Positions 2,901 through 63,850 of a stretch of DNA of 64,000 bases are shown one piece after another. The translations under genes were made by a program, and so were the position numbers. Source of the DNA: Octopus sinensis (Eukaryota). Location: the NCBI RefSeq assembly GCF_006345805.1, contig NC_043009.1:60078001-60142000 (forward strand), read 5' to 3'. Each line of letters opens with the position of its first letter. Position 1 is the first letter of the stretch. Under the pieces are notes generated by a model. It did no database searches, was not told the DNA's origin, and worked only from the letters and a program-made list of their open reading frames with translations.

Positions 2901-2948
2901 ACACACACGCACACACATACATGCACACACACACATACACATATATAT

Positions 2949-3456
2949 AATAGTATACATTTAAACATAAGAGAAACTACCTTTAACAGGTAATTTTATA
3001 CGCTAGAAGAAGCAGTCAAAACGACCAAAACCACATTTAAGAGCAATTTCCAAGGGAATGAAAAATAAAACTTTTACCTTGTTATTTTTGGTTTACGGTT
3101 ATACCTAGATTTCGAATTCTTTAGCAAATAAAATAATTTGCTGGGCGAAATTCTCATCAGTAACCGCGCCATAACATTAACATATAATTTAGAGACAAAT
3201 GACATGTGTCTCATCATTATATGTTATAATTTTTCAGATTCACCGCGCAAGTGCAGTTTCAGTCGGTAGTAAATGGAAAATGCCGAACTGATCTTCGAAA
3301 TGCTAAGATCATATACGTGAGATATATAGGGTAGCAAATATTTTTAGAAATTTCACTACCAGTGTCCTAGCATGTATAAAAAGTCAATAGACAACATATT
3401 CTCAATATAAAATAGTGTACATTTAAACATAAGAGAAACTACCTTTAACAGGTAAT
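2949..3456 (-). mobile_element. Terminally redundant ORF-less unit (462-bp period) carrying a hammerhead; retrozyme-like or non-autonomous Penelope-like element
   Basis: 46-bp direct repeat aatagt(a/g)tacatttaaacataagagaaactacctttaacaggtaat at 2949-2994 and 3411-3456, microsatellite on both sides, hammerhead at 3096-3166. Confidence 0.75.
3096..3166 (-). ncRNA. Type I hammerhead ribozyme, apparently intact
   Basis: Minus strand: cggtta (stem I) CTGATGA gaattt-cgccc-agcaaat-tatttt-atttgct-aaa-gaattc (stem II) GAAA tctagg (self-complementary stem III) TA taaccg (stem I'). The core is canonical with a GUA cleavage triplet and a predicted cut between 3102 and 3101. Confidence 0.85.
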
Positions 3457-7327: not shown

Positions 7328-7558
7328 TTAGCGAAATATATTATTTTTTTAGTTGAGAATATTAAGAGAAATCAATATTTTGAGAAATAAAAGGAATGTA
7401 ATGAATATGAAACCATGACTGAGTGGAAAATACTTCAATAGTATTGTTGTTTAACCCAGATCACCTTTATCAGGCAGACCTATGACCAAAATCGATTTTG
7501 TTTCTGATTATACTGTCAATATTTATTTATTTATTTATTTTTTTTTAACCCTCTGGAA

Positions 7559-7972
7559 GGCGGCGAGCTGGCAGAATCGTTAGCACGCCGGGCGAAATGC
7601 TTAGCGGTATTTCGTCTGCCGCTGCGTTCTGAGTTCAAATTCCGCCGAGGTCGACTTTGCCTTTCATCCTTTCAGGGTCGATAAATTAAGTACCAGTTAC
7701 GCACTGGGGTCGATGTAATCGACTTAATACCTATGTCTGTCCTTGTTTGTCCCCTCTGCGTTTAGCCCCTTGTGGGTAATAAAGAAATAGGTCTTTCGTC
7801 TGCCGTTACGTTCTGAGTTCAAATTCCGCCGAATTCGACTTTGCTTTCATCCTTTCGGGGTCGATTAAATAAGTACCAGTTACGCGCTTTGGTCGATGTA
7901 ATCGACTTCATCTGTTTGTCTGTCCTTGTCTGTCCCCTCTATGTTTAGCCCCTTGTTAGCAATAAAGAAATA
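7559..7972 (+). mobile_element. SINE family A dimer
   Basis: Head ggcggcgagctggcagaatcgttagcacgccggg; junction aaagaaata|ggtctttcgtc at 7789/7790; second unit is 183 bp. Confidence 0.9.
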
Positions 7973-8039
7973 AGAATATATATATATATACATATATATA
8001 CACCTATATAGAAATATATATAAACATATCTATATTTGC

Positions 8040-13065: not shown

Positions 13066-13651
13066 CAGACTATCAGGAAAGAAACAAAAATTATATAGGA
13101 AATATAGGAAATATATTCTTTTCTACTCTAGGCACGAGGCCCGAAATTTTGGGGGAGGGTCCAGTTGATTAAATCGACCCCCAGTGCGTAACTGGTACTT
13201 AATTTATCGACCCCGAAAGGGCGGAATTTGAACTCAGAACGTAGCGGTAGACGAAATACCTATTTCTTTACTACCCACAAGGGTAGGCGGCGAGATGGCA
13301 GAAACGTCAGCACGCCGGGCGAAATGTTTTGAGGTATTTCGTCTGCCGTTACGTTGTGAGTTCAAATTCCGCCGAGGTTGACTTTGCATTTCATCCTTTC
13401 GGGGTTGATAAATTAAGTACCAGTTACGCACTGTGGTCGATGTAATCGACTTAATACCTATGTCTGTCCTTGTTTGTTCCCTCTATGTTTAGCCCCTTGT
13501 GGGTAATAAAGAAATAGGTACTTATTTAATCGACCCCGAAAGGATGAAAGGCAAAGTCGACCTCGGCGGAATTTGAACTCAGAACGTAGCGGCAGACGAA
13601 ATACGGTTACGCATTTCGCCCGACGTGCTAACGATTCTGCCAGCTCGCCAC
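13066..13651. mobile_element. Composite SINE family A locus: minus tail piece, plus-strand copy, minus head piece
   Basis: 13066-13283 (-), 13286-13517 (+), 13517-13651 (-); the two heads are inverted copies of each other. Confidence 0.85.
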
Positions 13652-13959
13652 CATTTATGAAATGAACTATTCTACTGTTGAAGAACTCTTTTTGAATTCA
13701 AATAGCATTCTGTGTTTGAATATAAGTCAGATCTAAATTCATTTTACAAGAGTAAAAACGATAAGAATCTAACCACTGAAGTGGTATGAAGTAATCTGCA
13801 AATATAGAAAAAAAAATAGATGCCTCTTTTACTGTAAGTATTGAAAAAGTATTACCAAAGTTATCATGTCAAAAATACCATAGAACTTTCCTTCAAAACT
13901 AATACATACATACAAACATACATACATACATACATACATACGGTGGTGTATGTGTGTGT

Positions 13960-14332
13960 GAGGCGCAATGCCCAGTGGTTAGGGCAGTTGACTCGCGGTC
14001 GTAGGATCGCGGTTTCGATTCCCAGGCCGGACGTTGTGAGTGTTTATTGTGTGAAAACACTTAAAGTTCCACGAGGCTCCGGCAGGGGTTGGTGGCGAAC
14101 CCTGCTGTACTCTTTCACCGCAACTTTCTCTTACTCTTTCTTCTTGTTTCTGTTGTACCTGTATTTCAAAGAGCCAACTGTGTCACACTCTGTGTCACGC
14201 CGAATCTCCCCGAGAACTCCGTTAAGGGTACACGTGTCTGTGGAGTACTCGGCCACTTGAACGTTAATTTCACGAGCAGGCTCTTCTGTTGATTGGATCA
14301 ACTGGAACCCTCGTCGTTGTAACCGACGGAGT
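13960..14332 (+). mobile_element. tRNA-derived SINE family C with tail type 1 (possibly octopus OR-type)
   Basis: Head ggcgcaatgcccagtggttagggcag...ggtttcgattccc; body ccacgaggctccggcagggg...caactttctct; tail gtcacactctgtgtcac...gttaagggtacacgtgtctgtggag...ggaaccctcgtcg. Confidence 0.8.
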
Positions 14333-15527: not shown

Positions 15528-15579
<52 letters not shown>

Positions 15580-15625
15580 CATTTTATATTATTATTATTA
15601 TTATATTATATTATTATTTGATTAT

Positions 15626-15880
15626 TCAGTAGTTTTATTTTATAGCGTGCTTTCACTTCACTACCGAGCGCAGATCTGTGTGCCTTGGGTATGTGCTGTG
15701 ATTTGTTGTGATGCTCTGATGGTTATTGTATGGAAAGTGTCTGCGTAGGATGTGCGCAGTGCCTAGTAGTGCAATTTTCTGTATGTTATATGTGTTTGTA
15801 AGTCCTGGTGTTTTGTTATGTATTTGTCCTGAATATTTTTTTATCATGCCTAATGCACCTACTATGATAGGAATTGTTTC

Positions 15881-15884
<4 letters not shown>
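15626..15884 (-). mobile_element. 5'-truncated R4/Dong-clade non-LTR retrotransposon in (TAA)n
   Basis: Minus strand encodes TETIPIIVGALGMIKK...IQKIALLGTAHILRR, typical of the R4/Dong C-terminus, followed by a 3' UTR; (TTA)n on both sides. Confidence 0.8.
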
Positions 15885-15942
<58 letters not shown>

Positions 15943-15959
15943 TTAATATTATTATTGCA

Positions 15960-16455
15960 GTGAAGGCGGTGAGCAGGCAGAATCGTTAGAGTGCCAGGCA
16001 AAATGCTTAACGTTACTTCGTCCATCACTACGTTCTGAGTTCAAATTCCGTTCTGAGTTCAAAGGTCAACTTTGCCTTTCATCCTTTTCGGGCTCGATAA
16101 ATTAAGTACCAGTCAAGTACTGAGGTTGATGTCATCGACTGTACCCCTCCCTTCAAATTCCAGGCCTTGTGTCTATAATAGAATTGATAATAATAATAAT
16201 AATAATAATATTATTAAATATAATGTAATAATAACATTATTAAATATAATGTTGTTGTAGTGAAGGCAGTGTGCAGGCAGAATTGTTAGCAGTATTTCGT
16301 CCGTCTTTACTTTCTGAGTTCAAATTCCACTGAGGTCGATTTGCATTTTATCTTTTCGGGGTCGATAATTTACGTACCAGTTGAATGCTGGGGTCGACGT
16401 CATTGACTTAAATCCTCCCCTGCACTTGTTGACCTTGTGTCAAGATGTGAAACCA

Positions 16456-16456
<1 letters not shown>
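15960..16456 (+). mobile_element. Two SINE family A short-tail copies within (TTA)n arrays
   Basis: gaaggcggtgagcaggcagaatcgttag...gagttcaaattcc...ggccttgtg at 15962-16185 and 16262-16456. Confidence 0.75.
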
Positions 16457-16517
<61 letters not shown>

Positions 16518-16519
16518 TT

Positions 16520-16690
16520 ATGTCTGACTTTTTGCTTTGCATTTGTACAAGTTGGCTCCCAGTCTTACCCAGAGACCTCAAGAGACAACAAATTAGAAGT
16601 TCATGTTGGTGTTATGCCTAGAGTGCCATATATTTGGTTTTGTACAAAGTGTTTGTTCTAGAGAATGTTTAAGAAACCATAAGAAAATTG
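16520..16690 (-). mobile_element. 3' UTR fragment of a second R4/Dong-like family in (TAA)n
   Basis: Highly similar to 22319-22490, whose longer copy ends an ORF in ILRKILSM*. Confidence 0.65.
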
Positions 16691-16765
<75 letters not shown>

Positions 16766-16769
<4 letters not shown>

Positions 16770-16997
16770 TAGTTTTATTTTTATAGCATGCTTTCACTTC
16801 ACTACCGACCGCAGCTCTGTGTGCCTTGGGTATGTGCTGTGATTTGTTGTGATGCTCTGATGGTTATTGTATGGAAAGTGTTCTGCGTAGGATGTGTGCA
16901 GTGCCTAGTAGTGCAATTTTCTGTATGTTATATGTGTTTGTAAGTCCTGGTGTTTTTGTTATGTATTTGTCTGAATATTTTTTTATCATGCCTAATG
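16766..16997 (-). mobile_element. Second copy of the R4/Dong 3' end seen at 15626-15884
   Basis: Encodes LGMIKKYSDKYITKTPGLTNTYNIQKIALLGTAHILRRTLSIQ* in frame; same 3' end; different 5' truncation point. Confidence 0.8.
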
Positions 16998-16998
16998 A

Positions 16999-17047
<49 letters not shown>

Positions 17048-17303
17048 TATTATTATTGTTTTTATTATTGTTATTATTGTATTTTATGTTTTTATTCATT
17101 GTAAATCTCCTATTGTTTCTTGTTTCTGCGTTTTCCTATATAAATTATGGTGGCTATTTCTTCCCTCATCAATCACCAACTGACAACTATGTTATTAGAA
17201 ATCATCACCACCTTTATCATCATCATCATCATCTTCACCATCAATGTAATCATCAACTAATTAGTTGTTCAGCTTTTGGTTTGTAAAATATTTCCTGTAT
17301 TAA

Positions 17304-17921
17304 GGCGGCGAGCTGGCAGAACCGTTAGCACGCCGAGCGAAATGCGTAGCCGTATTTCGTCTGTCACTACCTTCTGAGTTCAAATTCCGCCGAGGTCGAC
17401 TTTGCCTTTCATCCTTTCGATAAATTAAGTACCAGTTACGCACTGGGGTCGATGTAATCGACTTAATCCGTTTGTCTGTCCTTGTTTGTCCCCTCTGTGT
17501 TTATCCCCTTGTGGGTAGTAAAGAAACAGAAATAAGTATTTCGTCTGTCTTTACGTTCTGAGTTCAAATTCCGCCGAGGTCAACTCTACCTTTTATCCTT
17601 TCGGGGTCGATTAAATAAGTACCAGTTACGCACTGGGGTCGATATAATCGTCTTAATCCGTTTGCCCTCTGTGTGTTTAGCCCCTTATGGGTAGTAAAGA
17701 AATAGGTATTTCGTCTGCCGTTACGTTCTGAGTTCAAATTCCGCCGAACCGACTTTGCCTGTCATCCTTTCAGGGGTCGATAAATTAAGTACCAGTTGCG
17801 TACTGGAGTCGATCTAATCGACTGGCCCCATTCCACAAAATTTCTGAACTTGTGCCCAGAGTAGAAAAGAATATATTTCCTATATTTCCTATATAATTTT
17901 TGTTTCTTTCCTGATAGTCTG
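17304..17921 (+). mobile_element. SINE family A trimer with extended 3' flank
   Basis: Head unit plus two headless units starting gtatttcgtctg (~17536, ~17705); the last unit has the short tail plus a 64-bp block shared with 13066-13129. Confidence 0.88.
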
Positions 17922-18629
17922 TGTGTGTGTGTGTGTGTTTGTGCGTGTAGATACACGACGATCAAACTAACTAATGTTGGTCTGTACCAGTAAGACTTAA
18001 AATATTTAGTAAAATCGACAATAAAAGTCAACAGGAAAATTGCAATGGGGAGTGGAAACGCCAACTTCAGGCAAATGTTGATTGGACAGAAATTAAAATG
18101 TAGTTGCAGAGTTTTGCAGACACTGACTCTTCTTAATTTATCTTAAGCAAATTTCTCCCTAAATAAGGCTTTTGTGCGAAACGTTGGATTTTTTCTGCAC
18201 TCCCTACAGCAACGTCCCTCTATTGTCCTTGAAAATTTTACTACAGACACATATAAACAACACACAATATTTATACTTCTATTTATATTATTTATATTTA
18301 TATGTATACATACATGCACGTTTGTTTGTATATATATATTATATATATATATAATATATATGATATATAGATTATATATATAATATATAAAATAATAATA
18401 ATAAAATTAATAATAATAATATTAGGGAGTAAAACTCCAAACTTACAGGGAAAAATTCAATTAGTATTAAATCAATTTTCACAATATAAATATATGAAAT
18501 ATAAATTAAGAGATAATTTTATACTTTTTGTGATCTAGTTATACGTTTTATAAAAATATATTTTTAAATATTATTCTGTCGGTTTATGTCTATCACTGTT
18601 TGAATTGCATAATAGTGGTTTTATTAATC

Positions 18630-18669
<40 letters not shown>

Positions 18670-19076
18670 CACAGACTCACTGGAGTCTTGGGAATTTGTT
18701 CCGGCTCTCTGTGCTCTGAGTTCACATCGTACTGATTTCAGCTTTACCTTTCCACCTTTCGTATTAATAATAGAGCACCATACTGGTGTTTCATTGACGG
18801 AGCAGTAGAAGATCAAAGTGATGCCTCATGTGTTTCATTCGGGTTTGTGCAATCACTTTCAAATCTTGGCTCATGACACCGGCAAAACTGTGATAGGCTT
18901 GGGAAGACCTTCATCAATAACCCAGTATTTCGGAGCCGTATATATATATATATATTATATATATATATATGGAGAGAGAGAGAGAGAGAGAGAAATACAT
19001 CACTATAAAATATACGTCGTGCTGAATCGAGGAAAGTAAGCTAACAGAATTTAAAAAAAAATTTTAATGCGTTATA

Positions 19077-19131
19077 TCTGTACTGATTAATTTCGGGATT
19101 AATCCAACGCATTTTTTGCCTCATCAGCAGA
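19077..19131 (-). ncRNA. Type I hammerhead ribozyme (copy 1)
   Basis: tctg CTGATGA ggcaaaaaatgcgttggattaatccc GAAA ttaatcag TA caga; core intact, stem III imperfect. Confidence 0.7.
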
Positions 19132-19581
19132 GAATACGGTATGAAATCAGTGAAATACAAGCACCCATGGAAAAAAAACAGAACCAAAAGTCATGTGTAC
19201 ACATAAGTACCCCAGATATATCCAAATAAAAAATTCCGTAGCGAACCTCAGCACACGTGTAATCGGTCAGGAACTACAACTTAGAGAGATCACCAGTCCC
19301 GAAGTGAATGGTAATAAATCTACTTCTAATATAGGATAAAATTTTTTCAAAAAATTTCATCAAGTGGCCAGCATATCAAAATACCTTTTAAGGTGAAAAT
19401 TATAAACAATTATAAATTATAAATAAGGGCAAAACAAAAAAATTCTATGCCAATGTGCTGAGTAATAAACTTTAAATAGTCAATTACCACATACAAATAT
19501 GCATCACTATAAAATACATGTCACGCTGAATCGAGGAAAGCAAGCTAACAGAATGGTTTTTTAAAAAAGAAGCGATATATA

Positions 19582-19636
19582 TCTGTATTGATCAATTTCG
19601 GGATTAATCCAACGGATTTTTCGCCCCATCAGCAGA
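19582..19636 (-). ncRNA. Type I hammerhead ribozyme (copy 2)
   Basis: tctg CTGATGG ggcgaaaaatccgttggattaatccc GAAA ttgatcaa TA caga; perfect palindromic stem III; core has A9>G. Confidence 0.65.
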
Positions 19637-19850
19637 GAATACGCTTTAAAAAAATTCTGTTAGCTTGCTTTCCTCGATTCAACACGGCATGTATTTTATA
19701 GTGATGTATATTGTATGTGGCGATTGACGATTTAAAGTCTATTTCTCAGCATATTGCCATAGAAATTTTTTCTTTTGCCGTTATTTCTAATTGCATACAC
19801 ACACCCACACATATATATATAGAGAGAGACAGAGACAGACAGACAGTGAG

Positions 19851-19913
<63 letters not shown>

Positions 19914-20099
19914 AGGAGTCGGAATTATATAAGATGACTGGGAAAAATATTTTCGGCATTTTCATCAACATAGCTACATTGACAGGAGGTTTATACAGAG
20001 ATAAAGGCTTTATAACCTCGTATTATATGAACAATCATCAGACAGAACGATACAAAGAAAAACAGACTCTACTGAATAATTTATAGTGGTTTGCTTTAG

Positions 20100-21100
20100 A
20101 AATATAGCTGAAACCACTTTAAGAACAGTTAATATTATGAACATTCAATTTAATCAGTAATAAATTCTACCCTTACTGAAAATTTAATGAGAGTCTGTTT
20201 TACATAAATAGGAATTCAAAAGACCAACCTTCTCTTCGAGCAAATTTTGTCTCCAACACTTGTAAAGTTCAGCTTCAAGGCCTCGTTTTTTAGTTATCAT
20301 TAGTATAACAAGACACTTCGCAATAGTGACGTTACGCCTAAAGCACATTACACTATGAGGACTGATATTTTCAAGTGTTAAAACGAACCATGAAATATTC
20401 ATCCTATTTGTCTGTATGTCAACACTTATATTTTCAGAGACAAACCTGATCTCTTTTTCTTATTTTCTGATTAAACAGATATCGTAAGTAGAAATATGGT
20501 TTAGACAAACTATTAATGTTGTAAATATTTTACACATCATGTTAGTAATTGCATTTCTCGAAACCTTTTCAACAACAGCAATATAGTCACATTTCCTACT
20601 TGCAAATGAATAACCGCTAGTATTTGTCCACTTAATGATAATTGTCTTTTAAAAACTCTAATTTATTGCGAGGAAATTCAACAGTGCCTCCAGAAACAGC
20701 ATCGAAAGTGAATAGCAATTGCTTTAAAATTTGTTTTTATCAATATATTCAACAGTCATGAGACCCGGAGGACAATTTGCTGCAAGATTCTTCAAATACA
20801 TTTAGTTACAAAAGAGAACAGATTTGTCGAGTTTCAAATACAATCGTGGTTTCTCGGTTGCGCTACTCATTATATAAGTGATAGTTTGCGTTCAAATATG
20901 CACCAAAGGCTTTGTTTATATGAGAGATTATTAAATACGGTTTCAACAGAGCAATAGATTAATAACAGCGTTCAGAAATATGGGATTAATGCAAACATTC
21001 TTCAAAGTTCTGCCTTCGCATTTATGAATCTCCAGATGGTTGACTAAAGCTGCGAAATGTTTCAGACGATAAGCTGAAGTAGAAAATTATGCAAACATTA
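20100..21100 (-). pseudogene. Possible ancient hAT transposase remnant
   Basis: Only a weak NSYLCKTDS match (~20190-20217) to the hAT dimerisation motif TYLCExxFS, in otherwise complex sequence. Confidence 0.25.
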
Positions 21101-22225: not shown

Positions 22226-22282
<57 letters not shown>

Positions 22283-22318
22283 CATTATTATTATTATTAT
22301 CATTATTATTATTATTAA

Positions 22319-22535
22319 ATGTCTGGCTTTTGCTTTGTATTTGTACAAGTTGACTTCAAGTCTCACCCAGAGATCTCAAGAGACAACAAGTTAGAAGTTC
22401 ATGTTGGTGTTATGCCTAGGCTGCCATATATTGGGTTTTGTACATAATATTGTTCTAGAGAATGTTTAAGAAACCATAAGAAAATTATATTTGTTTTAAA
22501 ACTTGAAATTACATAGAAAGTATTTTGCGTAGGAT
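22319..22535 (-). mobile_element. 3' end of second R4/Dong-like family
   Basis: Minus strand atcctacgcaaaatactttctatgtaa = ILRKILSM*, then the 3' UTR shared with 16520-16690, ending in (TAA)n. Confidence 0.7.
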
Positions 22536-24017: not shown

Positions 24018-24323
24018 GTGGAGGCACATGGCCTAGTGGTTAGAGCAGCGGACTCGCGGTCGAGGGATCGCGGGTTCGAATCTCAGACCGAGCGATGTGT
24101 GCGTTTATGAGCGAAAACAGCTAAGCTCCACGCGGCTTCCGGCAGAAGGTAATGGCGAACTTCTGCTGACTCTTTCGCCACAACTTTCTCTCACTCTTTC
24201 CTCCTGCGTCTTGCAGCGCACCTGCGACGGACCGGCGTCCCGTCCAGGTGGGGAACCTAAACCTCAAGGAAACCGGGAAACAGGCCCTTATGAACCAGTC
24301 ATGGCTCGAGAAGGAAGGAACAA
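24018..24323 (+). mobile_element. SINE family C with tail type 2, flanked by 171-bp direct repeats
   Basis: Head gtggaggcacatggcctagtggttagagcagcggactcgcggtcg...gggttcgaatc; tail ctgcgacggaccggcgtcccgtccagg...; repeats at 23847-24017 and 24324-24494. Confidence 0.88.
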
Positions 24324-24680: not shown

Positions 24681-25278
24681 AATGGATCCAATACAACAAC
24701 CATAAACGTTCAGCACAATGCTTGGACAGAGACGAGCCACCAAAACACAGTCCGAAAACAAAATTCATCAAAAGAAGCTGATGGTGTGTGTTTGGTGGTC
24801 TGGCGCAGGTGGGATCCATTATGATTTCATTAAACCTGGCTCATCAATCACGGCCGAAGTATACTGCGTCCAACTAGACCAACTGATGCAGAAACTTACT
24901 AAAAAAAACAGCCCAGATGAGTAAACAGATCCACTCCTATTTTATTGCAAGACAACGCCAGACCACACATCGCAAAAATGACATTGGCGAAACTACAGAA
25001 TTTTGCTCCCACTGACTACCACTTCTTCCAGAATCTATATAACTTTATGGTATGAAAAAGTTTAATTCCGACGATGTTGTAAAACATGCCTTCCATGATT
25101 TTATTGACTCTAGCTTGCCAAGCTTTTACAGTTCCGGGTTGGACAAGCTACCGCTGAAATGGGAAAAGTGTATTGACAATATGGGTGCATACTTTGATGA
25201 ATAAAACTATTCCTTGTATTTTTAAAACACGAGCAAAACGCCCCCCGTCCAATGGACGGTGCTGAGTTGTCAAACATA
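24681..25278 (+). pseudogene. 5'-truncated mariner transposase pseudogene with 3' end of the element
   Basis: WIQYNNHKRSAQCLDRDEPPKHSPK/IHQKKLMVCVWWSGAGGIHYDFIKPGSSITAEVYCVQLDQL/VNRSTPILLQDNARPHIAK...FAPTDYHFF...GLDKLPLKWEKCIDNMGAYFDE* (stop at 25204). Frameshifts; the HPPYSPD segment is deleted. Confidence 0.92.
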
Positions 25279-26128: not shown

Positions 26129-26299
26129 TTAACAAACTTTTTTCTTTTACAAATTTCTTACTTGACGACCAAATATGCATCACTATATAAATGTATGCAT
26201 GAATGTATGTACATTTTTGTTTGAGATTTAGCTTAATTCTTCTCAGATTTCAAGTTGATCACTAAGAAAGTGACCAGAATATTTTGTTTGAGTCAAAAC

Positions 26300-38076: not shown

Positions 38077-38249
38077 TGAATGTATATATGTATGTATGTC
38101 GGCGGCGGCGGCATCGGCGGTAGCTTTATGTCTCGTATCTGAGAATTTAGTCTCTTTTTTGCTGAACGCTTCTTTTATGGCGATACCGTCGATGACTCAG
38201 CCACTTGCTCGTTAATTTCACCAGCACGTTGTTCCGTTGGTCGGATCAA

Positions 38250-38425
38250 ATGAGAGAAAGTTGTGGCGAAAGAGTCAGCAGAAGTTCGCCATTACCTTCT
38301 GCCACAACCGCATAGATCTTAGGTGTTTCGCTCATAAACACACTAATCGCCCGGTCTGAGATTCGAACCCGCGATACCCTCGACCGCGACTCCGCTGCTC
38401 TAACCACTAGGCCATGTGCCTCCAC
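38250..38425 (-). mobile_element. SINE family C head and body, 3'-truncated
   Basis: Reverse complement matches 24018-24192. Confidence 0.85.
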
Positions 38426-38892: not shown

Positions 38893-39308
38893 TATTTCTT
38901 TACTGCCCACAACAAGCTAAACATAGCGGGGACAAACAAGGACAGACAAAGGGATTAAGTCGATTACTTTGACTCCAGTGCGTAACTGGTACTTTATTTA
39001 TCGACCCCGAAATGATGAAAGGCAAAGTCGACCTCGGCGGAATTTGAACTCAGAACGTAACGACAGACGAAATACCTATTTCTTTATTACCCACAAGGGG
39101 CTAAACACAGAAAGGACAAACAAGGACAGACAAACGGATTAAGTCGATTACATAGACCCCTATGCGTAACTGGTACTTTATTTAATCGACCCCGAAAGGA
39201 TGAAAGGCAAAGTCGACCTGGGCGGAATTTGAACTCAGAACGTAGCGGCAGACGAAATACCGCTAAGCATTTCGCCCGGCGTGCTAACGTTTCTGCCAGC
39301 TCGCCGCC
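38893..39308 (-). mobile_element. SINE family A dimer with 15-bp TSD
   Basis: Junction 39076/39077; headless unit 184 bp; ttcagttat(a/g)ctatt at 38877-38891 and 39312-39326. Confidence 0.9.
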
Positions 39309-39677
39309 TAATTCAGTTATGCTATTATACTATGTGTGGGTGTCTATGTGTATATGTGTGCTTGTGTGTTCATGAGTGCATGTGTGTGTGTTTGTGTGTG
39401 GTTTTGTGTCTAGAACCGCTGCACTTCATCCACTGCTTGTGGAAACAAACATCCTCATTATATATTTAAATTCATGTTAGTTTCGGAAACAAACTGAAAA
39501 AAAAAAATTGTTTTCATTTATGCTCTGTATTTTACGTCAAATCAACAGCACTTACACTACAACGACCAAAACGAACAGCACAACAATGAGAACAACAAAA
39601 ACACCAGCAACAACAACAGCGAAAATAGCAAACATAATAACAATAGCAACTACAACTTACAAAAGAAGAAAAAACGA

Positions 39678-62079: not shown

Positions 62080-63850
62080 TTCTATGAAGAAGAATATCCA
62101 CAAAGCATCTGACAGGATCGACACAAGATGGTCAATTATTAAAGTGGGTATCATCAGAATAATGCAGTGGAAAGTGTATTTTCACAACCACTAAACGATT
62201 TCACTAAAATCTATGTTCATGTAAACATCTAAAACTAACCACCTTGGATTCAATTATTCCGTAACGCTGAAGCAAAACCCTTAGAGATACCTTGGTCGTT
62301 AAGATTTTTTAAAATATTGTAATGATTTCCAAGAAATACTGTAATCAGACATCATAACTTTTAAGAACTCTAACGAAACCTTCACATTTTAAGACAAGAT
62401 GAAACATTTATACAAATTCTATGAAGACGGGATATGCTATCAAAAAAAGAAAACTCTCAAAATTACAGAAAATTTAACTCAAATACCTATGGTGATATTT
62501 ACTATAAAGCAAAATAAATATCGTGGCACCAAATTTATATAAGGAAATGCAGTGCTTAACGTACTTTTTGTTTAACTCTTAAGAACAACAAGAATATCAG
62601 TAGAAAACATAGTGCAGGCTAATAAACCTTGTCAGAGTGAGCTTGCATAAGTTAGCAAACACTGCATTACTGATATATTTCAACGATACCACCAACTGCA
62701 AATTTACCCAATTCGATATTGTCGAATTCTAGCCCTCACTTTCAAAGACACGCGTTACAAGGACCTTGAAATTTGGAAAGGCGTTTTACGACATTACGCA
62801 TACCAACTGTCGCTAATTTTTATCAATAACTCATAGAAATATTTCGTTAACTCAACAAATGAAAAAGAAGCCTATGAAGGAATCCATAGATTAAAGGATG
62901 TAACCTGCTTTCTCTTCAGTTTTTCCCTACTCACCAGTCAAACGGAATTTTAATTTTGAAATTTACGTACTTGTTCGTCTGAATGAATTGTGATATTTTG
63001 TAACTGAAGCTTTCTATCAGGCTATCAAGCATTGGTGTTCACAAGAACTCGATGTATTCAATTTCTATCTCCACTTATTAAAACGATATGATAAACGTCG
63101 CCCTTTTCAAGCCTAGCTAGGCTCATGGGCCCGGTTTTCCGGTTTCTGTGGCGTATGTGTTACCCCAGCTGGACGGGACGCCATTCCACCGGGCGTTGTG
63201 TATGTTTATTGAGCGAAAACACCTAAAAAAACTTCACGAGGTTCCGGCAAGGGGTGGTGGCGACCCCTGTTGTACTCTTTCGCCCCAACTTTCTCTCATT
63301 CTTTCTTCCTGTTTCTTGAGTAATGCTGGGGGGAACACATACTCCACAAAAACCGGTTAACCGGGCCCATGAGCCTGGCTAGTCTTGAAAAGGGCGAAAA
63401 GAAAAGAAAGAATATGGTTTATTAGACCATTACAGTAAATCTAACATTACCAAGAATTTCTTAAACCTAATTTAAAAATAATTTGAATGAGACACAAATA
63501 TTCCAAATTGTTCAATCAGATATATTTATTAGTTATCGTGACAAAGAACAGAATGTACGGAATATCGTGGCATTTAGTAAGAGCCTTTACTACCAAAGAA
63601 TTTCAGAGACTCGGTGAATAAATCGTCAAAAAACCATGAGAATAATACAAGATGTAAACCGACGCTTCAGAGGACATAAACTACAACTGCTAAAGTAGAA
63701 GGTTATGTACTTTCAGTGACTTATGTAAGACTGAAACTGTAATTTAGTTAGCCATTGTTTCCGTTCCCAGAGATACAGAACCTCCGATATGGTATATCAG
63801 AATACGCGAAGGTAGTCTCAAACGTCAGTAGTTAAACCAAAATTCCACAT
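62080..63850 (+). pseudogene. Decayed Penelope-like RT/GIY-YIG ORF, interrupted by a SINE fold-back
   Basis: IIRIMQWKVYF (cf. IKRMRWKAFF), NDFQEIL*SDI...DKMKHLYK (cf. ADKTxNLY), LTLKNNK (cf. ITLKDHK), CRLIN/QSELA*VSK, CKFTQFDIVEF*PSLS (cf. FDIxEFYPSI, ~62697-62745), then SNITKNFLNLI*K*F...KYSKLFN (~63440-63515). Confidence 0.8.
63099..63396. mobile_element. Fold-back made of an inverted SINE C tail plus a headless SINE C body and tail
   Basis: Arms 63099-63169 and 63325-63396 are inverted copies; the centre matches the family C body. Confidence 0.8.

Follow-up and report, generated by a model that had tools for sequence, protein, structure and literature searches.

The locus at 18995–19793 of the window (the whole stretch of 64,000 nucleotides of Octopus sinensis DNA that was analysed) combines two hammerhead ribozyme motifs in tandem with an inverted copy of the adjoining sequence, which raises the question of what kind of element left this arrangement behind, and whether its transcript may still release the self-cleaved RNA monomer that a preliminary description had attributed to it.

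Self-comparison of the 64 kb window delimited the element by a direct repeat (18995–19146 versus 19499–19651, E 6e-38) and an inverted match across 19415–19792 (E 4e-85). The hammerheads are spaced by 505 nt and the segments downstream of them by 504 nt, both direct repeats standing at 89%. Along the minus strand the inverted arm comes first, followed by hammerhead 2, A, B, C, hammerhead 1, A and the end of the element (Table 1). This amounts to 1.29 head-to-tail units of 505 nt and an inverted copy in head-to-head orientation, cut short at the ribozyme, with simple repeats on either side. The inverted arm begins 9–10 nt past the cut position, being thus devoid of the ribozyme, ends 173–179 nt past the cut and contains a slipped A/T run; an inverted copy of about 140 bp had been recognised before, and what changes is its extent, which is somewhat longer (19642–19793 versus about 19407/19413–19574). 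Head-to-tail units that each carry a type I hammerhead, here two hammerheads 505 nt apart, are a feature of non-LTR retrozymes. Insertions of Penelope-like elements (PLEs) are described as partial tandems with an adjoining inverted 5'-truncated copy, a 30–40-bp tail at one end and (TA)n or microsatellite targets, target-site duplications being often not discernible (Craig et al. 2021, PMC8557442). The partial tandem, the inverted 5'-truncated copy, the type I hammerheads with their short palindromic helix III and, less distinctly, the microsatellite surroundings observed here fit the published descriptions, and the Penelope-type layout proposed earlier is supported.

Table 1. Features of the 505-nt element, its flanks and the related hammerhead unit (positions in the window)
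Feature	Position	Strand	Remarks
Left flank, microsatellite (TA)n(GA)n	18939..18991		3 nt from element end
Tandem part of insertion	18995..19644	-	650 nt = 1.29 x 505 nt; no Pfam-detectable coding remnant
Segment A, copy 1	18995..19050	-	18995 is the insertion's left end, 86 nt past cut site 1
Hammerhead copy 1	19077..19131	-	core CUGAUGA 19127-19121; GAAA 19094-19091; cut after 19081 (GUA triplet)
Cut-to-cut monomer	19081..19585	-	505 nt; 32% GC; circle self-pairing z -1.0 versus shuffles
Segment common to both units	19329..19381 (versus 3324-3382)	-	A/U-rich hairpin inside; 33-39 nt 3' of inverted-arm end position
Segments A+B of copy 2 plus linker	about 19407/19413..19574	-	partner of the inverted arm
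Hammerhead copy 2	19582..19636	-	core CUGAUGG 19632-19626; G at position 9 (19626); cut after 19586 (AUA triplet)
Inversion joint	19641..19644		2-3 nt microhomology; joined positions are paired partners at outer tip of hammerhead 2 extended stem I
Inverted 5'-truncated copy	19642..19793	+	16 mismatches in 140 columns versus copy 2
Right flank, imperfect CA/TA/GA run, then (GATA)n	19794..19910		no clear target-site duplication
Related hammerhead unit (control)	2943..3456	-	462-nt period; 52-nt terminal repeat (96%); one hammerhead (core 3160, cut 3102)

We have searched both strands of the 64 kb with a descriptor of the type I hammerhead (stem I, CUGANGN, stem II, GAAA, stem III, UH), which matched three loci, all on the minus strand (cores at 19127, 19632 and 3160, cuts at 19081, 19586 and 3102), against a mean of 0.03 loci per 64 kb with the strict core and 0.07 with the relaxed core in 100 dinucleotide shuffles. 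The two tandem hammerheads reported at about 505 bp from each other are confirmed, the cores at 19632 and 19127 being exactly 505 nt apart. Rfam yielded no match at gathering score in the window, copy 1 remaining below threshold with Hammerhead_HH9 (15.5 bits versus 52, E 1.5) and other sub-threshold matches being uninformative, so that the hammerhead call rests on the descriptor.

The element itself is non-coding. The 505-nt unit has a GC content below 50% and stops in all six frames, no Pfam family was matched in the six frames of 18000–21001, and none of 12 six-frame translations evidenced an RT or GIY-YIG remnant; the ORF with RT and GIY-YIG domains that characterises an autonomous EN+ PLE is absent. 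Among 147 non-repetitive ORFs of the window compared with Pfam, only a mariner-type transposase fragment (24706–24921, plus strand, PF01359, E 2.4e-18) was above the cut-off, and sigma-70 promoter and tRNA scans returned nothing useful. A GLIPK-like stretch across stem II, which we take to resemble a PLE N-terminal motif, was dropped as a coding remnant, as it lies after two in-frame stops. No further copies of the element were found in the 64 kb window; a 21-nt match to segment A/B at 26170–26190 (E 0.003) did not extend and was taken as chance.

The window around the element is low in GC, rich in microsatellites and populated by many SINE-like repeats. One such family is abundant (394–824, 7555–7976, 13282–13652, 17295–17830, 38893–39316 and others), frequently arranged as head-to-tail dimers of ~185 nt and, at 13284–13652, as an inverted pair; the translation of a repeat copy at 39061–39372 matches a predicted protein of Octopus bimaculoides (E 2.5e-13, one match among three candidates). 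Repeats of 90–91% adjoin (TAA)n runs at 15546–15956, 16693–17096, 16455–16689 and 22254–22486, and the minus-frame translation of 15653–15985 is presumably like the C-terminus of an R4/Dong-type non-LTR ORF. A MITE-like sequence at 63098–63397 has 69-nt inverted arms (90%) around ~160 nt, with a fold z of about −11, and related pieces occur at 14027–14151, 24087–24213 and 38249–38355.

In light of these observations, we consider it probable that the locus is one old insertion of the short, non-coding, non-LTR retrozyme kind, mobilised by a PLE RT/endonuclease made elsewhere in the genome. Three hammerheads against 0.03–0.07 expected, and a layout and type I hammerhead with palindromic tetraloop that match known elements, argue for this reading, and so do the lack of an RT or GIY-YIG remnant, the equidistance of the three A segments and the absence of any compensatory pair (see below for both). 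On the opposing side are the 505-nt circle, which is not unusually self-paired, a unit longer than 170–400 nt, ends that lie ~87–93 nt apart, the lack of a target-site duplication, the silence of Rfam at threshold, and the fact that a single locus of the family was examined.

Comparison with known systems goes in the same two directions. Type I hammerheads with palindromic helix III occur in PLEs and in non-coding, circle-forming tandem retrozymes, those of metazoan elements having, as here, a helix III of 2 bp that ends in a palindromic tetraloop (Cervera & de la Pena, PMC4209133, PMC7229834). Retrozymes are reported to derive from PLE repeats, and the unit range of their families, 51–972 bp, includes 505 nt (Li et al. 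2026, bioRxiv 10.64898/2026.07.22.740005); their circles are described as highly self-paired, the tested metazoan ones being of ~170–400 nt (PMC7229834). The locus thus resembles metazoan non-LTR retrozymes in its non-coding tandem units with one type I hammerhead each, a GC content below 50%, a short palindromic helix III, the lack of an LTR layout and the coexistence with PLEs. It differs from them in having only 1.29 units, a circle that is larger than those tested and not strongly self-paired, a 4-bp helix I, a long two-part helix II, damage in both ribozymes and an inverted arm, unmentioned in the accessible descriptions (PMC7229834; bioRxiv 10.64898/2026.07.22.740005). With EN+ PLEs it shares the partial tandem, the inverted 5'-truncated copy at the 5' end, the unequal ends, the simple-repeat flanks and the type I hammerhead in the repeat (PMC8557442, PMC4209133), but it has no RT/GIY-YIG ORF, its ends are ~90 nt apart and not 30–40, and its hammerhead differs from that of Hydra-1_Obim.

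The 505-nt element had also been considered unrelated to the hammerhead unit near 2949, which is probably wrong, as a segment of ~55 nt is common to both (local score 36, z 4.7 versus 300 shuffles). Scores as high were reached by 4 of 828 real window tiles (2 loci) and by none of 530 reciprocal tiles. The global alignment of the 505-nt and 462-nt units is marginal (z 1.9), no similarity is seen in the post-cut part of the 462-nt unit (z −0.9), and the correspondence of ends is made ambiguous by another, weak match, which links the left end to the 462-nt terminus (E 0.14–0.49). The common segment starts 32 nt past that terminus in the 462-nt unit and, in the 505-nt element, 33 or 39 nt past the point at which the inverted arm ends. 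It speaks for a template in which B adjoined C, and its shared offset fits a fixed unit rather than random truncation; the segment at 19329–19381 may be a candidate site positioning the start of reverse transcription, an idea drawn from two examples only, in A/T-rich sequence. With an intact core, a 7-bp stem I and a strongly self-paired circle (z −5.1), the 2943–3456 unit is the stronger candidate for an active retrozyme family. The 505-nt circle, on the other hand, does not exceed its shuffles (z −1.0; duplex of A+B with the rest, z −0.66), within a background of 12 tiles of 505 nt that spans −11.1 to +2.9, one of them overlapping the element itself. Simulated decay of the 462-nt control still gave −3.0±1.2 at 6% and −1.8±0.7 at 10%, so that decay explains the low self-pairing only partly.

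The best surviving alternative denies that the 505-nt period corresponds to a natural monomer. The locus would then consist of two 3' ends of a longer autonomous PLE, each 5'-truncated and set in partial tandem, plus the usual inverted copy, with the hammerhead in the 3' pLTR, as in Hydra/Neptune elements, and the joint between copies at ~19407–19413. The inverted arm ends exactly there, as expected if this were the 3' end of the element, a circle that is not unusually self-paired would be no surprise, and the Hydra table places hammerheads ~100–400 nt from the 3' end and includes one family with a 5' inverted copy (PMC8557442). We nevertheless hold this reading to be rather unlikely, since two different long elements truncated at random would rarely agree in the offset of the common segment (33–39 and 32 nt). 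Coding remnants are also missing, although a 260-nt 3' UTR need not carry one; the hammerhead of Hydra-1_Obim is a different one, and 10 of 11 short probes were unmatched in the available supplement of PMC8557442, the remaining one having a single match within unrelated coding sequence.

A much weaker case can be made for the functional model of the preliminary description, according to which two damaged ribozymes complement each other and release a ~505-nt circularising monomer, the arm acting as a switch. As had been read, the core is intact in copy 1 (CTGATGA) and altered in copy 2 (CTGATGG), the descriptor giving CUGAUGA and CUGAUGG, and stem III is imperfect in the former and palindromic in the latter (UUAAUCAG versus UUGAUCAA); with respect to the core CUGANGA ... 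GAAA ... UH, copy 1 fits and copy 2 has a G at position 9. What the earlier description missed is stem II, in which two of nine pairs are broken in copy 1 and retained in copy 2. Copy 1 is accordingly weakened by two stem II mismatches, a non-palindromic loop III and a strong competing fold, whereas copy 2 has an intact extended stem II and a palindromic helix III. Thirteen of the 16 proposed pairs are identical in both copies, one is U-A versus U-G and two are broken in copy 1; across both copies 30 of 32 pair cells are paired, G10.1-C11.1 and A15.1-U16.1 being present in both. The U-G pair and the GUA triplet of copy 1 need not be defects, as both recur in the 3160 hammerhead. None of the five differences within the two ribozymes forms a compensatory pair, no more than one site is served by an intact core, and stem II of copy 1 is broken, so that complementary defects in the sense that had been proposed are not supported.

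Indeed, in a double hammerhead each core acts on the cut site of its partner (PMC4209133). The intact core of copy 1 can thus serve only site 2, and site 1 needs the A9G core; furthermore, the swapped helix III for site 2 carries an A-C mismatch. From classical mutagenesis of the hammerhead core A9G is expected to be harmful; a literature search for its effect found no direct value. When the active secondary structure is forced, the cost is of 16–23 kcal/mol for copy 1, 7–12 for copy 2 and 8.4 for the 3160 control, energies that are meaningful as relative values only, and the predicted helix III duplex is weaker between copy 1 and copy 2 (−3.2 kcal/mol) than between two copies 2 (−9.0). Strand-swapped sites in cis are predicted at 14.9 and 23.6 kcal/mol without the arm; the values with the arm (64.5 and 76.4) were discarded as a product of the pseudoknot ban in folding. 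The 3' side of stem II (19082–19104 and 19587–19609, minus strand) can alternatively pair with helix III over 7 bp, as the fold predicted for copy 1 shows; in copy 2 such a pairing, with one G-U, was recognised by eye. Such an inactive fold might be a built-in off state.

On the favourable side, cut sites and stems I are intact in both copies, GUA and AUA occur naturally as cut triplets (PMC1636495), hammerheads with a weak helix III are known to cleave as dimers (PMC4209133, PMC7229834), and one PLE hammerhead needed protein assistance (PMC11167929), so that folding models may underrate activity. Against it, the only swapped site with an intact core depends on a core whose stem II is broken and a helix III that is mismatched, copy 1 folds actively at high cost, compensatory changes are lacking, and of nine genomic dimers of Xenopus retrozymes only one cleaved in vitro (Li et al. 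2026, bioRxiv 10.64898/2026.07.22.740005). The same authors count as active those retrozymes with two complete hammerheads in consecutive units, a pair that the locus does not have. We regard the functional model as very improbable. A circularising monomer of ~505 nt is plausible for the ancestral family; double cleavage and its release from the present locus are unlikely, given A9G, the broken stem II and the fold cost. As a ribozyme pair, the locus is probably dead or very weak, without efficient release of the 505-nt monomer, and A9G in copy 2 with the broken stem II in copy 1 make it a decayed, not an active, member of the retrozymes, a membership which as such is likely.

Concerning the inverted arm, the minus strand is predicted to form one long hairpin (z −13.5 versus 20 shuffles) with hammerhead 2 at its tip, as had been noticed, and the arm runs directly into stem I of this hammerhead. 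It had been asked whether the arm suppresses cleavage. The fold model predicts that it extends stem I, raising the pair probability from 0.00 to about 0.58, and favours the monomer fold, the cost of which decreases from 11.7 to 6.8 kcal/mol; as modelled, the arm is not a suppressor of the hammerhead 2 monomer, the dimer fold being a pseudoknot and as such outside the model.

Sequence divergence tells how the copies have evolved. The three copies are 9–12% apart, and the three A segments are equidistant (6/56, 5/56 and 5/56 differences), as expected for one insertion whose copies arose together and have since decayed by about 5% each. The arm evidences no sign of selection: among its mismatches 7 are transversions, and G-U pairing is kept at 5 of 16 on the minus RNA and at 4 of 16 on the plus RNA. 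Transversions make up 7 of 11 differences (4 transitions) in the distal arm/segment B (19413–19498 versus 19710–19793) and 0 of 8 in segment A (Fisher p 0.013, post hoc). As uniform decay does not predict this skew, it counts against the single-insertion reading, and the arm could derive from a different template RNA. An ADAR-type A-to-G bias is not apparent among the few differences between copies. On the O. vulgaris scale, where JC 0.09 corresponds to 25 My (PMC13282606), the insertion may be very roughly 14 My old.

These data also bear on the proposal of a long hairpin domesticated by the host, as a substrate for small RNAs or editing, or of a foldback DNA element, with incidental hammerheads. 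A hairpin of 140 bp, 88% paired, is indeed predicted in the transcript of either strand, but the arm mismatches have no G-U bias and include transversions, a directional excess of A-to-G changes is not apparent, the two arms resemble each other no more than they resemble copy 1, so that homogenisation is not seen, and the direct repeat and the two ribozymes are left unexplained; we give this proposal hardly any credence. An assembly artefact or chance motif, for which one could invoke the 100-N gap elsewhere in the window and the absence of Rfam matches at threshold, is practically dismissed by a copy divergence of 9–12%, not expected of a collapsed or duplicated read, by the descriptor null of 0.03–0.07 and by a third hammerhead unit of the same build in the window.

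The way in which the insertion was assembled is suggested by its joint and its ends. The tandem part matches copy 1 as far as 19643, 11 nt upstream of the core. The unit contains 5322 inverted 3-nt microhomology pairs and only a handful lie within stem I, so that a joint at stem I is a coincidence of the order of 1 in several hundred, for a single event noticed post hoc. In the twin priming of L1, a second cDNA primed from the other target strand anneals by microhomology; a literature search on Penelope and twin priming found nothing relevant. A snap-back of the cDNA end occurs with R2 proteins (Zhang et al. 2024, PMC11371274). The likeness to R2 and L1 is in the self-priming or microhomology annealing of cDNA that leaves an inverted copy at the 5' end; these are other retroelement classes, and the difference is that here the joint coincides with a ribozyme helix. 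In DNA folding models, pairing of the cDNA 3' end with its predicted partners reaches no more than p 0.16 when 84 nt are folded, and with 145 nt the end favours other partners, so that snap-back receives weak support.

As for the ends, the left one is 3 nt from a microsatellite, a distance shared by 12% of the window, and the right one is 58 nt from a strict microsatellite, with an imperfect run adjoining. Similar (TA)(GA) runs on both sides are 17 nt out of register and were not accepted as a target-site duplication. The two ends differ by ~87–93 nt, versus a typical PLE tail of 30–40 nt, which may reflect a long tail or a later deletion. In the Poseidon PAc element of Anolis, reverse transcription starts at nt 111–118 of the ORF and the cut lies at nt 26, which places the start 85–92 nt past the cut; RNA on the 3' side of the start is required (Frangieh et al. 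2024, PMC11167929). The 86 nt found here agree with this, as a numerical match only between sequences that were not compared; two start sites in PAc lead to unequal ends, and the need for RNA 3' of the start fits a segment ~33 nt past the end. PAc differs in that its hammerhead overlaps the ORF start and its tail is of 30–40 nt.

Returning to the retrozyme insertion, tandem transcripts of intact family members would self-cleave, probably as dimers via the palindromic helix III, into monomers of ~505 nt that could be ligated to circles, as known families do. The PLE protein would nick a simple-repeat target and reverse transcription would start inside the RNA, at 18995, 86 nt past the cut, running through more than one unit, on a circular or multimeric template, up to 19643. 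The inverted arm would be made where stem I is self-complementary, either by twin priming, slightly favoured because the outer end of the arm looks like the start site of the family, or by the first cDNA snapping back; neutral decay of the three copies would complete the history.

A single decayed copy carries little weight as a locus. Together with the 2943–3456 unit, it suggests that an octopus genome contains at least two non-autonomous PLE families with hammerheads; recent activity of Penelope-like families has been reported in octopus (PMC13282606). The literature searched, repeat libraries and subscription papers lying outside it, contained no description of hammerhead-bearing families of this kind; the accessible text of a 2026 paper on O. 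vulgaris repeats has no hammerhead, ribozyme or retrozyme terms (PMC13282606), and the sole octopus hammerhead found was that of Hydra-1_Obim (PMC8557442). How PLEs make tandem and inverted insertions has been named an open question (PMC8557442). A speculative answer, to which we attach a low probability, is that the hammerhead helps to build the insertions, stem I in the cDNA serving as the annealing or snap-back point for the 5' inverted copy and the hairpin segment ~33 nt 3' of the start, common to octopus retrozyme families that otherwise diverge, setting where RT begins, the stem I joint and the common-segment offset each resting on one or two examples. If this were true, inversion joints would cluster at stem I genome-wide, and insertion ends would fall at a fixed distance from the common segment. 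The two positional hints thus bear on the mechanism by which PLEs form tandem and inverted insertions, and can be checked across the genome.
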